A stretch of DNA of 64,000 bases from an uncultured Alphaproteobacteria bacterium (GTDB taxonomy: Bacteria > Pseudomonadota > Alphaproteobacteria > Rhodobacterales > Rhodobacteraceae), in contig CAVXOH010000017.1 in NCBI GenBank assembly GCA_963763295.1, positions 7,465 to 71,464 of the forward strand, written 5' to 3'. The notes under the pieces were generated by a model. The model saw only the letters and a program-made list of their open reading frames with translations, was not told where the DNA came from and did not search any database. Position 1 is the stretch's first letter; the number at the start of each line of letters is the position of its first letter. The position numbers and the translations under genes are program-made. Below, one piece after another: positions 16,401 through 60,854 of the stretch.

Positions 16401-16472
16401 TCGTGCAAGCGTTGTGCATGAGTTCGTGCATGGATTGTGTATGAGCGAATTCAGCCATGTCGCTGTCGCCGC
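16401..16472. repeat. 11-bp-array element, family B copy 1
   Basis: GTGCA/GTGTA cores at 16403, 16414, 16426, 16437; the 36-bp flank matches 25297-25332 at 30/36. Confidence 0.8.
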
Positions 16473-25274: not shown

Positions 25275-25332
25275 TAGTTTGCGTTGTGCATGCCCCGTGC
25301 ATGAGCGGATCCCGCCATGTGGCTGTCGACGC
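25275..25332. repeat. 11-bp-array element, family B copy 2
   Basis: GTGCATG at 25286 and 25297, plus the flank shared with copy 1. Confidence 0.75.
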
Positions 25333-27585: not shown

Positions 27586-27682
27586 CGGTGCGCAGCGCAC
27601 GGGCGCGCCTCGATGCCTGCGGATCACCCCACCTCATCGGGGACCGGCTGAACGGCTCGGTCTTCCCGACTTCGGCGGCCGG

Positions 27683-27797
27683 CGTTAACGATCCAATCCT
27701 GACCGTTTCAGGTGCCATATGGATTCCATATGCATTCCATACGCGTTCCAGATCGAGCGAATCCCCGTAAACCTTTGGCATCGAAGCCTTCACCCGG
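27683..27797 (+). repeat. 115-bp 11-bp-array element, family A copy 1
   Basis: 106/115 identical to the reverse complement of 45761-45875; four TTCCATAYG-type units at 11-bp period. Confidence 0.95.
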
Positions 27798-27805
27798 AGC
27801 CCGCC

Positions 27806-30478
27806 TCAGAGGTCGAGCCGTGATCTCACCACCCCCGGCTCGGTCACGTCGAGCTCGGTTGCGAACCCGAGCCGCTGGATCAGGCCGCGCATCCCGCGGT
27901 TTTCGGCCAGCACGATGCCCTCGACCCGCTCGAGCCCGTCGGCGCGCGCATAGTCGATCAGGATCCGCATCAGCGCCGCGCCGATCCCGCGGCCCTGCAG
28001 GTCGGAGCGCACCAGGAGCGCATACTCGCCGGACCGGTGGTCGGGGTCGCAGGCGAGCCGCGACACGCCCGCGAGCTCGCCCTCCGGCGTCAGCGCCACG
28101 AAGGCGATCTCGCGGTCGTAGTCGAGCTGGGTGAGCCGCAGCGCCAGCTCCTGCGGGAACTGCCGCCGCGGCGCCATGAACCGCAGCCGCAGATCCTCGG
28201 GCGCGGTATGGGCGAGGAACGCGGGATAGAGGAGCGCGTCCGCCGGCCGGATCGGACGAATGTCATAGCTGGCCTCCGGCCGGTCGATGCGGCGGCGCCA
28301 TTCCGCCGGATAGGGCCGGATCGCCAAATCCGGGTTGGGCGCCCGGCGCTCGAGGTCGGCGGGGTCGATCTCGATCCGGGCGTCGAGCGCGAGCACCCCG
28401 TCGGCATCGGCGAGGAGCGGGTTGACGTCGAGCGTGCGCAGGCAGGGGAAGTCCTCGACGAGATGCGAGAGGGCGACGAGCGCCGCGTGCAGCGCCGGGA
28501 GATCGGCCGGAGGGCGGCCGAGGAAGCCTGCGAGCACCGCGCCGACCCGCGTCCGCTCGATGAGGTCGGCGGCGAGCCCGGCATCGAGCGGCGGCAGTGC
28601 CACCGCGGTGTCGCCGAGGAGCTCGACCGCCACCCCGCCGGCGCCGAACAGGATCACCGGCCCGAAGACGGGGTCGCGCCCGACGCCGAGAATCAGCTCC
28701 TGCGCATCGGCCCTGCGGATCATCGGCTGCAGCACGAAGCCGTCGGGCACCGCCCCGGGCACCGCCTGCGCGAGCCGGGCGGCGATGCCCTCGGCCGCCC
28801 GCTCGGCCTCGACGGCCGAGGCGACGTCGAGCACCACGCCGCCGATGTCGGACTTGTGGCTGACCTCGCGCGACAGGACCTTCACCGCCAGCCGGCCGCC
28901 GGCGGCCAGCATCGCCGCGGCGACCTGCCCGGCCTCGGCCGGCGTGCGGGCGATCCGGCCGGCGGGCGATGGAATGCCGTAGGCGCCGAGCGCCGCCTGC
29001 GCCTCCGGCGCGGTCAGCAGGCTCCGCCGCTCGCGGGCGACGGCGGCGAAGATCGCCGCGACCTCCGCCCGCGCGCCCGGCGCCGCGTCGGCGCCGTCCC
29101 CGGCGCGGCGGTCGGGGACGCGAAGCAGCGCCGCCTGCGCCTTGCCCCAGTCGGTCAGGTGCCCGACCGCGGCCGCGGCGGTCGACGGCGTGTCGTAGCT
29201 GGCGACGCCGCCCTCGCGCAGCACTGCCCGCGCGGCGCGTGCGGCGCTGCCGCCCATCCAGCAGGCGAGGACGGGCTTGCCCGCGATCAGGCCGCGCTCG
29301 GCGCAGCCGGCGATCACCGCGGCCGCCGCGCCGGCGTCGGCGAGCGCCGAGGGCGTGTGCATGACCAGGATGGCGTCGACGCCGGCATCGGCGGCGACGG
29401 CCTCGACGGCGGCGAGATAGCGATCGGGCGCGGCATCGCCCATGAGGTCGACCGGGTTCGCGCCGCTCCACCGGGACGCCAGCGCGGCGCCGAGCCCGGC
29501 GAGCGTTTCCACCGCGAGCTCGGCGAGCTGGCCGCCGTCGGCGTGAAGCCGGTCGAGCGCGAGCACCCCGGCGCCGCCGCTGTTGGTGACGACGCCGAGG
29601 CGCGCCCGCTCCATCGGCCGGAAGCGCGCCGCCGTCTCGGCCGCCGCCAGCAGCTCGGAGAGGCCGCTCACCCTGAGCACCCCCGCTCGGCGCAGCGCCG
29701 CGTCGACGACGGCGTCGGCGCCGGACAGCGCCCCGGTATGGGTCGCGGCGGCCCGCGCGGCCTCCACCCCGCGCCCGGCCTTGAGCGCCACCACCGGCTT
29801 CAGCCGCGAGGCCGCGCGCGCGGCCGAGAGGAGCTTGCGCGGCGCGGGCACGCTCTCGAGATAGACGAGGATCGCCCGGGTCCGCGCGTCCCCGGCCAGA
29901 AGGTCGAGGCAATCGCCGACGTCGACGTCGGCCATGCCCCCGAGCCCCATCACCTGGCTGAAGCCGATGCCGTGCTCGGCCGCCCAGTCGAGCAGCACCG
30001 ATGCGATCGCCCCCGACTGCGAGACGAGCGCGAGCCGCCCGGGCTCGGCGGCGGTGCCGGCGAGGCTTGCGTTCAGCCGCGCCTCCGGCACGATGACCCC
30101 GAGCGCGTCCGGCCCGATCACGCGCAGCAGGTGCGGGCGGGCCGCGTCGAGCATCGCCTGGCGCGCCGCGGGGTCGAGGCCCCCCGTCACCACCACCGCC
30201 ACGCGGCAGCCGCGGGCGCCGAGCGCGGCGACCGCCGCCGGCACCTCCGCCGGAGGCGTGGCGACGACGCCGAGGTCGGGCACGCCCGGCAACGCCGCGA
30301 CGTCGGGGAAGCACGGCAAACCGCGCATGGCGGCAGGGCCGGGACCGACCGGCCAGACCGGGCCCTCGAAGCCGCCGGCGACGATGTTGCCGAGCACGAG
30401 CCGGCCCGGGCTCGGGTCGGCCCCGATCACCGCGACCGAGCCCGGATGCAGCGCCGCCCCGAGGTTGCGTATGCTCAT
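27806..30478 (-). CDS. pat: Acyl-CoA synthetase (NDP-forming)-GNAT fusion, Pat/PatZ-type protein lysine acetyltransferase
   Basis: SQSGA, DVDVGD, KAGR, HTGAL, NPVDL, ATP-grasp region DPVFGP, C-terminal GNAT (DYDREIAFVA, QGRGIG). Confidence 0.92.
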   Translation of the reverse strand: MSIRNLGAALHPGSVAVIGADPSPGRLVLGNIVAGGFEGPVWPVGPGPAAMRGLPCFPDVAALPGVPDLGVVATPPAEVPAAVAALGARGCRVAVVVTGGLDPAARQAMLDAARPHLLRVIGPDALGVIVPEARLNASLAGTAAEPGRLALVSQSGAIASVLLDWAAEHGIGFSQVMGLGGMADVDVGDCLDLLAGDARTRAILVYLESVPAPRKLLSAARAASRLKPVVALKAGRGVEAARAAATHTGALSGADAVVDAALRRAGVLRVSGLSELLAAAETAARFRPMERARLGVVTNSGGAGVLALDRLHADGGQLAELAVETLAGLGAALASRWSGANPVDLMGDAAPDRYLAAVEAVAADAGVDAILVMHTPSALADAGAAAAVIAGCAERGLIAGKPVLACWMGGSAARAARAVLREGGVASYDTPSTAAAAVGHLTDWGKAQAALLRVPDRRAGDGADAAPGARAEVAAIFAAVARERRSLLTAPEAQAALGAYGIPSPAGRIARTPAEAGQVAAAMLAAGGRLAVKVLSREVSHKSDIGGVVLDVASAVEAERAAEGIAARLAQAVPGAVPDGFVLQPMIRRADAQELILGVGRDPVFGPVILFGAGGVAVELLGDTAVALPPLDAGLAADLIERTRVGAVLAGFLGRPPADLPALHAALVALSHLVEDFPCLRTLDVNPLLADADGVLALDARIEIDPADLERRAPNPDLAIRPYPAEWRRRIDRPEASYDIRPIRPADALLYPAFLAHTAPEDLRLRFMAPRRQFPQELALRLTQLDYDREIAFVALTPEGELAGVSRLACDPDHRSGEYALLVRSDLQGRGIGAALMRILIDYARADGLERVEGIVLAENRGMRGLIQRLGFATELDVTEPGVVRSRLDL

Positions 30479-34282: not shown

Positions 34283-34356
34283 CCCTGTGGGGCAGCGGGC
34301 TCCTGCACGGATTTGGTGCATGGATTGTGCATGGGATGTGCATGGGTTGTGCATGC
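34283..34356. repeat. 11-bp-array element, family B copy 3
   Basis: GTGCATG at 34316, 34327, 34338, 34349 (exact 11-bp period); upstream flank similar to the reverse complement of copy 4. Confidence 0.85.
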
Positions 34357-37814: not shown

Positions 37815-37880
37815 AATCGCATGCACAACACATGCACAAGTCATGCACCGATCATATGCGCGAATCCCGCACCCCAAGGG
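37815..37880. repeat. 11-bp-array element, family B copy 4 (opposite strand)
   Basis: TGCAC at 37822, 37833, 37844. Confidence 0.8.
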
Positions 37881-44337: not shown

Positions 44338-45753
44338 ATGCGTCGGCGGACCGTGCTGGCGGGGGCGGCGGCCTGGCTTGCGGCGCCCGCGCTGCGTCCG
44401 GTGGCGGCGGCCTCGGCGCCGTCGCTCGCGACGATCCTCGAGTCCTCGGGGCTCGCGGCCGAGACCGGGCTCGCGGTGGTGGATCTCGCTTCGGGGCAGG
44501 TGCTCGAGGCACACCAGCCCGACCACGACCGGCCGCCCGGATCGGTCGCGAAGATCGTCACCGCGCTGTGGGGCCTCGATGCGTTGGGGCCGGACTACCG
44601 GTTCCGAACCGAGATCCGGGGCACCGGGCCGGTCGCGGACGGGAATCTCCACGGCGACCTGGTGCTCGCCGGCGGGGGCGATCCTCTGCTCGACACCGAT
44701 GCGCTCGGGGACATGGTGCGGGCGCTGAGGGCGTGCGGGCTGGCGGAGGTGAGGGGGCGGTTCCTTGTCGCCGACGGTGCGCTGCCGGCGGTGGCGGAGG
44801 TCGATCCGGGGCAGCCGGCGGATGCGGCCTATAACCCGGCCATCTCGGGGATGAACCTGAACTTCAACCGGGTCTTCCTCGCATGGAGTCCGGGCGCCGA
44901 CGGCCCCGATGTCGCCTTCAGTGCGCCCGGGGCGCGTTTCGAGGTGCCGGCGGCGGGCTTCGCGGCCGAGCTGGTCGGCGCAGGGCTGCCGCGGCACCGG
45001 ATCGAAGCGGGGCAGGAGATCTGGACGCTCGCGCGGGGCGGCCTCGCCGGCAGCGGCAGCGTCTGGTTGCCGGTGCGTGCGCCGGCCGCCTATGCCGGCG
45101 CGGTCTTCGGCGGCCTGGCGGCCGGGGCCGGGCTCGCGCTGCCCGCCGCGGAGATGGCGGCGGCAGGATCGGGCGCGCTCATGGCTGTGCGGCAGGGTCC
45201 GCCGCTCGACGCGATGCTCCGGGACATGCTCAACTACTCGACCAATCTGACGGCCGAGATCGTCGGGCTCCGCGCCGCGCAGGCGAAGGGGCAGGAGCCC
45301 GGCGGAGTCGCGGCCTCGGCCGCGGCGATGTCGGACTGGGCGCGCGGGCGGTTCGGGCTGCGGCGGATGGCGTTCGTCGATCATTCGGGGCTGGGCGGCG
45401 GCTCGCAGGTGACGGCGGCCGAACTAGTCGCCGTGCTGCGGCAGGCAGACCCGCTCGGCTTGCCCGGGCTCCTGCGCGAGCGGCCGATTCTCGCGGCCGA
45501 CCGCAGCCCGGTGGAGATCGGAGGGGTGCGGGTGGTGTCGAAGACGGGGACGCTCGATTTCGTCAGCGCGCTGGCCGGCTACATGATCGGACCGCGCCGG
45601 CTCGCCTTCGCGATCCTCGCCGCCGATCCGGAGCGCCGGGCGCGGATCCGGCCGGAGGAGCGGGCGCAGCCGCCCGGCGCGACCGCCTGGGCCACGCGGG
45701 CGCGGGCGGAGCAGCAGGCCCTGCTCCGGCGCTGGGCAGCGATCTACGGGTGA
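44338..45753 (+). CDS. dacB: D-Ala-D-Ala carboxypeptidase/endopeptidase (PBP4)
   Basis: GSVAK (SxxK), GGGDP, YSTN (SxN), DHSGL, KTGTL. Confidence 0.92.
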   Translation: MRRRTVLAGAAAWLAAPALRPVAAASAPSLATILESSGLAAETGLAVVDLASGQVLEAHQPDHDRPPGSVAKIVTALWGLDALGPDYRFRTEIRGTGPVADGNLHGDLVLAGGGDPLLDTDALGDMVRALRACGLAEVRGRFLVADGALPAVAEVDPGQPADAAYNPAISGMNLNFNRVFLAWSPGADGPDVAFSAPGARFEVPAAGFAAELVGAGLPRHRIEAGQEIWTLARGGLAGSGSVWLPVRAPAAYAGAVFGGLAAGAGLALPAAEMAAAGSGALMAVRQGPPLDAMLRDMLNYSTNLTAEIVGLRAAQAKGQEPGGVAASAAAMSDWARGRFGLRRMAFVDHSGLGGGSQVTAAELVAVLRQADPLGLPGLLRERPILAADRSPVEIGGVRVVSKTGTLDFVSALAGYMIGPRRLAFAILAADPERRARIRPEERAQPPGATAWATRARAEQQALLRRWAAIYG

Positions 45754-45760
45754 CAGGGGA

Positions 45761-45875
45761 CCGGGGGAAGACTTCGATGTGAAAGGTTTACGCGGATTCG
45801 CTCGATCTGGAACGCGTATGGAAGCCATATGGAAACCGTATGGCACCTGAAACGGTCAGGATTGGATCGTTAACG
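45761..45875 (-). repeat. Family A element copy 2
   Basis: Reverse complement of 27683-27797 at about 92% identity. Confidence 0.95.
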
Positions 45876-45933
45876 CAGGCGCGACGCTCGACGCCGCTCG
45901 GCGAGAGCTCGTCGACGTGCGGCCTTGGCGGAT

Positions 45934-59435: not shown

Positions 59436-60326
59436 ATGGGCGCGGACATCATCGATGGCAAGGCGTTCGCGGCGCGGATCCGCGCCCGGGTGGCGGGGAT
59501 CGTGGCCGAGCTCGGCGTGCAGGGCATCGTGCCCGGCCTCGCGGTGGTGCTGGTCGGCGACGATCCGGCGAGCGAGGTCTATGTCCGCAGCAAGGGCAAG
59601 CAGACCCGCGAGATCGGGATGCATTCGCAGGAGCACCGGCTGGCGGCGACGGCGAGCGAGGGCGAGGTTCTCGGGGTGATCGCGCGGCTGAACCAGGACC
59701 CGGCGGTCCATGGCATCCTGGTGCAGCTGCCGCTGCCGGCGCAGATCGACACGGCGCGGGTGCTCGATGCGGTGACGCCGGAGAAGGACGTCGACGGCTT
59801 CCACGTGCTGAACGCCGGCCGGCTCGCCATCGGGCAGCCGGCGATGGTGCCGTGCACGCCGCTCGGCTGCCTGATGCTGCTGCGCGACCGGCTGGGCGAC
59901 CTCGCCGGGCTCGACGCGGTGGTGATTGGGCGGTCGAACATCGTCGGCAAGCCGATGGCGCAGCTGCTGCTGCGGGAGAACTGCACGGTGACGGTCGCGC
60001 ATTCGCGGAGCCGGGGGTTGCCGGGGATCGCGGCGAGGGCCGACGTTCTCGTGGCGGCGGTTGGGCGGCCGGGGCTGGTGACCGGGGACTGGGTGAAGCC
60101 GGGGGCGACGGTGATCGACGTCGGGATCAGCCGGGTGGCGCGGCCGGAGGGGGTGATCGAGCTGGTCGGGGACGTCGATTTTTCGAGCGTTTCCAAGGTC
60201 GCCGGTGCGCTCACGCCGGTGCCGGGCGGGGTCGGGCCGATGACGATCGCCTGCCTGCTGGCGAATACGGTGACCGCGTGCTGCCGGATTCGGGGGCTGC
60301 CGGAGCCGGAAGGTCTGACGGCCTGA
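59436..60326 (+). CDS. folD: Methylene-THF dehydrogenase/cyclohydrolase
   Basis: [43 protein letters not shown]. Confidence 0.97.
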
Positions 60327-60424
60327 TATCAAAGGTTTACGAGGATCCGCGCGATATGGAACCCGTATGGAACCCATATGGAATGCGTATGGGTAGCAAA
60401 AGACTCGGGATTGAATCGTTAAGG
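60325..60424 (-). repeat. Family A element copy 3 (diverged)
   Basis: Ungapped match to copy 1 at about 77/100; 11-bp units and both ends (TTAACGAT, GTAAACCTTTG) kept. Confidence 0.88.
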
Positions 60425-60854
60425 CTGCCCGGTCCCGCGCGATCATCGTGCCGAGCATCGTCGCGACGTGGCGGCGGGCGGCGTCGGCCTCGGCGTAGAC
60501 TTCGGAGGCGACGACGAGGAGGCGGCGGCCGTTGCGGACGACGCGGCCCTCGGCGACGAGGCGGGTGCCGCTGGCCGGCGCGAGGAGGTTGATCTTCATC
60601 TCGACGGTCAGGACCTCGTCGCCCGGGGCGAGCAGGCTCAGCGCGGCGTAGCCGGCGGCACTGTCGCCGAGCGACCAGGCGAGGCCGGCATGGGCGAAGC
60701 CGTGCTGCTGGCTGGTCTCGGGGCGGATCGGCGCCGAGAGCATGCAGCGGCCCGGGGCGAGGTCGGCGATCGTCGCCTCGAGGAGGCGCATCATGCCCTG
60801 CCGGGCGAAGCTCGCCCGGACGACGGCGTCGAAGTCGGGGTTGCGCGGCTGCAT
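60420..60854 (-). CDS. PaaI family thioesterase (3' end uncertain)
   Basis: QQHGFAHAG, GDSAAGYAA, TVEMKINLLAPA. As sequenced there is no in-frame stop; TAA at 60420-60422 becomes in frame if one G is removed. Confidence 0.85.

Follow-up and report, generated by a model that had tools for sequence, protein, structure and literature searches.

Family A, a short repeat with three copies in a window of 64,000 nucleotides (the whole stretch of DNA that was analysed), is probably a non-autonomous transposable element, i.e., a MITE, that carries terminal inverted repeats (TIRs) of the type found on the resident insertion sequence IS_1660, a conserved core of approximately 92 bp and a T-N-A triplet on each side. 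Family A is dispersed in its genome, is polymorphic between species and has IS-like ends, and we infer that it is mobilised in trans, with integration at T-N-A, by a DDE transposase of the IS_1660 type. According to the mechanism that we propose, the full form, at approximately 155-170 bp, would consist of imperfect TIRs that enclose a core running from TTAACG through four 11-bp units to CGTAAACCTTTG, with T-N-A flanks on the outside. Insertions that survive selection would pile up on or beside stop codons, because T-N-A is rare in intergenic DNA of 70% GC and most stop codons are T-N-A, and the gene that is hit would keep one copy of the triplet. Short-form copies would be older ones, with eroded arms and a core that is still conserved. 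The four units would represent cargo rather than a requirement of the transposase, because the ~280-bp MITEs of IS_1660 itself are without them; our best guess is that the units fit best a candidate site for head-to-tail binding of a protein along a single face of the helix, a reading suggested by the position-specific conservation of the core, the fixed number of units and their 11-bp phasing.

Copies in the window and in the source genome

The source genome (G000) is a 92%-complete, Amaricoccus-like MAG of 5.24 Mb with 70% GC in 21 contigs, and the window corresponds to C17:7465-71464. Its placement in an Amaricoccus-like genus of Rhodobacteraceae is based on public contigs with the array and on how identical they are to G000. 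The three copies are present where the sequence-only reading of the window had placed them, at 27683, 45761 and 60325 (Table 1), and BLAST identities to copy 1 of 92.2% over 115 bp (copy 2) and 76.9% over 108 bp (copy 3) agree with its estimates of ~92% and ~77%. The four 11-bp units were likewise found as described, as were the conserved ends CGTTAACGATYCAATCC and CGTAAACCTTT and the AT-richer composition, with a GC content of 52-56% across the element versus 70-75% in the flanks. The first of the four units is GCCATAYG and the last is frequently TTCCAGATCG; the two-unit pattern CCATAYGNNTTCCATAYG has 7 matches in the 64-kb window versus 0 in 100 shuffles. The element exceeds the proposed extent of 115 bp, as copies 1 and 2 have arms that reach the flanking triplets. 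By Pfam, the stop codons that had been reported to adjoin the three copies belong to GNAT acetyltransferase, S13 D-Ala-D-Ala carboxypeptidase and FolD genes; the neighbours are an NAD kinase gene and the stop of the minus-strand GNAT acetyltransferase gene for copy 1, the dacB-like S13 peptidase gene and ruvC for copy 2, and folD and a convergent 4HBT thioesterase gene for copy 3.

Table 1. Positions of the three Family A copies, their parts and their flanking triplets in the window.
Feature	Position	Strand	Remark
TCA triplet, left flank of copy 1, putative target duplication	27634..27636	.	read directly; identical triplet 3' of right end
Copy 1, full span, TCA on each side	27637..27805
Copy 1 left arm, degenerate IS481-type TIR (TCGGGGACCGGCTGAACGGCTCGG...)	27637..27684	+	by-eye comparison with TIR consensus; outside the extent first proposed
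Copy 1 head, GTTAAC hexamer / TTAACG	27684..27690	+	near-invariant across 71 copies
Copy 1, four phased 11-bp units: TGCCATATGGA, TTCCATATGCA, TTCCATACGCG, TTCCAGATCGA	27713..27756	+
Copy 1 tail, CGTAAACCTTTG	27766..27777	+
Copy 1 right arm, IS481-type TIR (GCATCGAAGCCTTCACCCGGAGCCCGCC)	27778..27805	+
TCA, right flanking triplet of copy 1	27806..27808	-	stop codon (TGA) of GNAT acetyltransferase gene
TGA stop of S13 carboxypeptidase (dacB-like) gene	45751..45753	+	flanks copy 2 on its tail side
Copy 2, full extent	45754..45912	-
Copy 2 right arm	45754..45780	-
Copy 2 tail	45781..45792	-
Copy 2 units	45802..45845	-
Copy 2 head, CGTTAA	45868..45873	-
Copy 2 left arm	45874..45912	-
Copy 2 far flank triplet, CGA	45913..45915
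folD TGA stop	60324..60326	+	3 nt from copy 3 tail
Copy 3, short form	60327..60422	-
Copy 3 tail	60330..60341	-
Copy 3 units	60351..60394	-
Copy 3 head, CGTTAA	60417..60422	-

At copy 3, the thioesterase ORF (60102-60851, minus strand) has no stop codon at the conserved C-terminus of its product (...MLGTMI); the frame stays open through the whole of the copy and continues, antisense, into folD, which adds more than 110 codons. After a shift of 1 nt, the head TAA of the copy would be in frame with this ORF, and the read-through reflects either an assembly indel or a genuine extension of the C-terminus.

A search of the source genome with nhmmer identified 71 near-full copies of Family A, at ~100-170 bp each, as well as ~25 partial or array-only matches, as expected of a short, non-coding and dispersed MITE; the regions between neighbouring copies contain housekeeping genes. 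The core, measured from TTAACG to CCTTT, spans 90-93 bp in 65 of the 71 copies. In one copy (C2:39250-39602), a ~230-bp fragment of another transposase gene lies between the units. A plasmid collection yielded no match, and literature searches by motif and by topic returned nothing relevant. A replication-oriented motif was considered and discarded, as the link with GC skew is weak (44 versus 27).

Arms, the resident IS and placement at stop codons

Approximately 17 young, long-form copies (90-96% identical) extend outwards beyond the core, with TACGCTCTCCTTCTGAACGCTTCGCGCCTGCG on the left and GGCATCGAAGCCTTCACCCGGAGCCCGTA on the right. Their consensus arms form imperfect TIRs of ~30-45 bp, with an inverted-repeat alignment score of 10 as compared to 3.0 +/- 1.5 in shuffles, of which 3 in 2000 reach 10; most copies are of the short form, which has eroded arms and no clear TIR. 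The sequence-only reading had described the element as having no long TIR and as being neither a classical MITE nor a palindromic REP. With regard to REPs this description stands, as no hairpin is present, but with regard to TIRs and MITEs it does not, in that the arms had been cut off by the coordinates chosen and were therefore missed.

A self-comparison of the source genome revealed many insertion sequences. IS_1660, an IS of 1.65 kb, is present in 8 intact copies (e.g., C1:83248-84886), 7 of which are identical at the protein level and 1 of which shows 99% identity, and at least 20 canonical deletion derivatives of ~280 bp represent MITEs of this IS. Its transposase of 409 aa matches the Pfam models rve, rve_3, HTH_28/32 and LZ_Tnp_IS481, and hence shows the DDE (rve) domain, N-terminal HTH and leucine zipper of the IS481 family; the NCBIfam model transpos_IS481 scores 212 bits, just below its cut-off of 224. 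The ends of IS_1660, TACGNNNTCCNNN(N)TGANNGCTTCGCC, read TACG..CGTA and are flanked by a 3-bp T-N-A, rather than showing the TGT..ACA ends and ~6-bp duplication typical of IS481. Family A departs from IS481 in the same two respects, with ends that read TA..TA instead of TGT..ACA and a flanking triplet that is a 3-bp T-N-A, whereas most IS481 members have 6-bp duplications, within a family range of 2 to 15 bp (PMC10045372).

The IS_1660 ends and the long-form Family A TIRs have a 16-nt signature in common (TACG-N3-TCC-N3/4-TGA-N2-GCTTCG), which the consensus left arm of Family A also fits. In the form YACG-N3-TCC-N3/4-TGA-N2-GCTTCG, this signature has 24 matches in the source genome, all in IS_1660, its MITEs or Family A right arms, the last comprising two full copies and the interrupted copy at C2:39248; T-N-A directly precedes the signature in 23 of the 24. 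The genome hence contains, in IS_1660, a candidate autonomous partner with matching ends. A match to the end of a known IS had been named in the sequence-only reading as a finding that would refute it, and the signature found in the Family A TIRs is that of a resident IS of the IS481 family, with a match that is partial. Family A was also detected in relatives in which only fragments of an IS_1660 transposase were found; this represents weak counter-evidence, because the genomes concerned are fragmentary MAGs.

The T-N-A flanks offer an explanation for the position of the element. Of 45 IS_1660-type ends, 41 are flanked by T-N-A; at 14 of the 45, this triplet doubles as the stop codon of an incoming ORF, and at 20 of the 45 a stop codon is found within 15 nt. 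T-N-A occurs approximately once per 39 nt of intergenic DNA, and the T-N-A stops (TGA and TAA) represent 82% of all stop codons, so that flanking triplets that often coincide with a stop codon account for placement beside stops; as the ends of IS_1660 hug stop codons too, this habit belongs to the type of transposon and not to the 11-bp array. In long-form Family A, TCA is present before the left end in 7 of 10 copies and after the right end in the majority; 5 copies have it at both ends. Across all 71 left flanks, TCA is not enriched (41% observed versus 36% expected), and no clean 3-bp duplication can be read from the filled and empty sites at C8:68188.

Placement was quantified with gene ends from a crude home-made caller, for which incoming ORFs had at least 80 codons and a GC3 of at least 0.8. 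An incoming stop codon is present within 30 nt of the tail (the CGTAAACCTTTG side) in 49 of the 71 copies and within 30 nt of the head in 22, as compared to 4% of trials for a given side of a random intergenic point. The claim that the element is oriented and targeted is supported by 36 tail-only versus 9 head-only copies (binomial p = 7e-5), and the stop-proximal orientation bias seen in the window did not vanish when all 71 copies in the genome were considered. Convergent intergenic regions, as defined with a separate home-made gene caller, harbour 31 of the 71 copies, yet such regions represent only 15% of all intergenic regions. The stops beside tails (39 TGA, 7 TAG, 3 TAA) resemble genome usage (77/18/5%); TAG, which is not T-N-A, is not depleted (7 of 49 versus 18% genome-wide), and T-N-A targeting alone is thus not the whole story. 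The 36:9 bias, moreover, is not predicted by a near-symmetric DDE mechanism. On the head side, 11 ORFs appear to end at the TAA within TTAAC.

Polymorphism between genomes and sibling families

Comparison with relatives, which the sequence-only reading had suggested as a check, showed two orthologous loci to be empty, and the presence/absence polymorphism at orthologous sites that is expected of a MITE was thus found for Family A. At the folD locus, the ~100-bp element between two convergent gene ends is absent from three relatives, in which these two gene ends lie only 6 nt (G008 and G045) or ~36 nt (G016) apart. At C8:68188, the site of a young copy, four relatives (G017, G055, G044 and G002) have contiguous sequence without ~150 bp, with the same stop codon 1-10 nt beyond the end of this empty sequence. 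Of 24 relatives from the same genus, 10 have the full element, which was not found in any of 16 more distant genomes; the two-unit array is limited to 6 of 301 genomes from the order, representing 5 of 112 genera, and gave no control matches. This patchy, multi-copy spread is the pattern of a mobile element; a conserved regulon would look different.

Some public MAG contigs labelled Solirubrobacterales or Polyangiaceae (L081, L036 and L106) carry end pieces from this Amaricoccus-like lineage, L081 being 99.2% identical to the source genome; as each of those genomes has one Family A copy, these contigs are probably chimeric or mis-binned. A near-isogenic comparison through the 99.2%-identical public contig was abandoned, as this contig, which comes from a MAG with another label, proved to be a chimeric end piece with a single copy.

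In Octadecabacter-, Maritimibacter- and Puniceibacterium-like genomes, arrays have other flanks or are bare and sit in stop/start overlaps of co-directional genes, with flanking (A)TGA repeats and TTCCATA in the sense direction. The array-only inserts of Octadecabacter-like genomes, which have no TIR and lie in ATGA overlaps, speak against the preferred reading. In Octadecabacter- and Maritimibacter-like genomes (L067, L075, L037, L055, L092 and L119), array elements of 44-110 bp split the ATGA (or ATGGTTAA) overlap, with direct repeats of that overlap on either side, and the last base of the element restores the downstream start codon. The idea that the left arm of Family A supplies a Shine-Dalgarno sequence and a start codon after landing in an ATGA overlap was rejected, as a real gene start is seen in 1 of 11 long-form copies; the pattern does fit the array elements of Octadecabacter- and Maritimibacter-like genomes.

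In Family A, a GTTAAC / GTWAAC pair with a spacing of 82-83 bp brackets exactly four 11-bp units. GTTAAC is largely confined to non-coding DNA in the source genome (220 of 236 sites non-coding, 16 coding); single GTTAACCAT and GTTAAC-N5-GTTAAC sites outside the repeats look like CtrA boxes in promoter regions. Two sibling families have the same organisation. Family B, with 25 copies, has a 91-bp core with GTTAAC on both sides and four GTGCATG units, and shows the same bias in placement as Family A (tail 12 versus head 6 of the 25 copies); its arrays (GTGCATGNNNY) are found in the window at 16403-16442, 25286-25302, 34316-34354 and 37821-37848. Family C, with 34 copies of ~300 bp (e.g., C4:95370, C7:174785 and C8:79135), keeps the hexamers and the four-unit array; it starts with GTTAACCTTGGTTGACGGGGCGGGGCAAG, has four CATGCACANNN units of the GTGCATG type and ends near ...GTCGATCCGCGGTTAACCATCG, and an extra left extension of ~55 nt often abuts TAG. 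Unit types known on this scaffold are TTCCATAYG, GTGCATG and TTTCATATG. The last of these is found in G007 (L026, G007:C20, about 300-400), where an element is present after dacB at the same place as in the source genome, with a nearly identical head (GGATTGAATCGTTAACGCAGG) and with all units changed together to TTTCATATG.

These families raise the alternative that the GTTAAC-bounded, ~90-bp four-unit core is itself the mobile or functional entity, spread by another mechanism (TTAA-type integration, a site-specific recombinase or gene conversion being candidates), and that the IS481-type arms are secondary, one core lineage having landed in, or having been captured between, a pair of IS_1660-type ends. 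We consider this somewhat unlikely. Consistent with it, 60 of the 78 GTWAAC pairs that lie 60-130 bp apart have a spacing of exactly 82-83 bp, the hexamers and an array of four units recur in Families A, B and C with differing units and arms, TTGTGCAT units of the B type occur in four copies of Family A, cores in different surroundings or arrays on their own are seen in other genera, and the arms decay around a core that stays conserved. However, conservation among the copies extends beyond the right hexamer (CCTTTG, GRC...), which indicates that the hexamers are not the ends of the element. A search for an empty outer arm pair found none in the genome, where the arms occur solely with Family A. 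A recombinase or other autonomous partner, for which the sequence-only reading had proposed to look, was not found beside any of the 185 arrays, nor was any IS consistently near them.

The four-unit array and its likeness to known systems

Whichever part is mobile, conservation within the core is very uneven by position. Across the 71 copies, TTAAC, AATCC, GAC, the CCATA.G of every unit and CGTAAACCTTTG are near-invariant; at a median pairwise core identity of 76%, the unit positions TTCCATA.G are ~90-100% conserved, as compared to ~50% for Y, NN and the spacers. The number of units is fixed at four, with the exception of three copies in which the core is shorter by exactly one 11-bp unit. Such conservation, together with a spacing of one helical turn, the concerted change of all units in the G007 copy, the lack of RNA structure and an 11-nt period that excludes a conserved reading frame, could also mean that the host uses the units, perhaps with the GTTAAC half-sites, as a putative binding platform at gene 3' ends, which would explain their persistence; candidate binders would be an OmpR/CtrA-like response regulator or a nucleoid protein, and the platform may serve as a roadblock, insulator or titration site. 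We regard host use as possible, if on balance doubtful, since no protein partner was identified, a distribution over 5 of 112 genera fits a parasite better than a host system, selection on master copies can also lead to uneven conservation, and the orientation of the array relative to genes varies between genera. The hexamers do not form a full CtrA site (TTAA-N7-TTAAC), as they lie 82-83 bp apart and the head reads TTAA-N7-ATCC. By-eye comparison with LexA (GTTC-N7-GTTC), sigma-54, ECF and IHF motifs yielded none that fits the conserved positions.

An action as RNA, i.e., as a 3'-UTR stabiliser, terminator, sRNA or protein sponge with repeated AUGGAA motifs, appears very improbable. The tail-first orientation does put the element on the transcript of the upstream gene in 49 of 71 copies, and folding of the transcript strand is slightly more favourable than that of shuffles (z = -1.1 to -1.9, within an overall range of -0.1 to -1.9). 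However, the consensus structure of 15 diverse copies reaches -1.0 kcal/mol with a single 5-pair helix, and Rfam searches over the window gave no match at gathering thresholds and, at E <= 10, chance-level matches only, all outside the element. Terminator-like or promoter-like sites are absent, and readings as a structured RNA, terminator or promoter were rejected on these grounds. A CsrA sponge (repeated AUGGA) was likewise rejected, because the source genome has no CsrA gene; PF02599 is absent from it and was detected in control genomes.

The preferred reading of Family A as a MITE can be set against several described systems. IS481-derived MITEs, including the ~280-bp IS_1660 derivatives, are also small, non-coding, multi-copy and polymorphic between species, have TIRs with the IS end signature and T-N-A flanks, and often abut stop codons; in Family A, by contrast, the interior is a separate conserved module of GTTAAC hexamers and four phased units and not an IS deletion product. 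BOX elements of Streptococcus pneumoniae (boxA-boxBn-boxC) are modular and intergenic, have tandem internal units and are often co-transcribed with their neighbours. They resemble Family A in their conserved end modules, tandem units and ends like inverted repeats, but their units measure ~45 bp, occur in variable numbers and form RNA folds, whereas those of Family A are of 11 bp, fixed at four and without a fold. Correia elements (CREE) of Neisseria are distinguished by a TA duplication, TIRs of 26 bp, an IHF site and processing by RNase III, and Family A showed none of these; these MITEs of ~100-155 bp are nevertheless similar in that they are frequently found at gene ends, and their cargo is a binding site for a host factor. 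BOX and Correia elements, the former modular and the latter with cargo, represent the closest analogues of Family A. REP/BIME units are stable hairpins mobilised by RAYT enzymes and, as abundant intergenic repeats after stop codons, especially between convergent genes, recall the placement of Family A. Membership among REPs or REPINs fails because Family A, which is without a significant fold, has no hairpin or palindrome.

Direct-repeat operators phased at 11 bp include CtrA sites (TTAA-N7-TTAA), Pho/Tor boxes and the ParR parC iterons. The likeness here is in working only, with head-to-tail units one helical turn apart and ~8 conserved and 2-3 free positions per unit; such operators or centromeres occupy single loci, whereas at least 90 arrays are carried on mobile elements here. 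Overall, the element is probably a MITE with IS481-type ends that differs from the usual kind in its non-IS interior, its T-N-A flanks and its fixed, phased four-unit array, of which several sequence versions exist.

For the biology of these organisms, the elements reshape gene ends, with 11 ORFs that appear to stop at the head TAA and a thioesterase frame that crosses copy 3, and miscalled gene ends are therefore to be expected from annotation pipelines run on this genus. Family A also provides a worked example of why a transposon lands exactly after stop codons in a GC-rich genome, where T-N-A is rare and most stops are T-N-A. A broader idea, which we consider distinctly unlikely, is that the GTTAAC-bracketed four-unit module is a portable, putative protein-binding cassette, with a unit sequence that co-evolves with a cognate DNA-binding protein. 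If this is true, a cassette carried on IS481-type MITEs would place identical platforms by the hundred at operon junctions and at the 3' ends of genes in some Rhodobacteraceae; such a platform might pair CtrA-like half-sites with a head-to-tail binder and might serve the host, or the element, as a roadblock to transcription, as an insulator or for titration of a regulator. The occurrence of the four-unit module in at least three sequence "dialects" points to a putative sequence-specific DNA-binding activity in Rhodobacteraceae.
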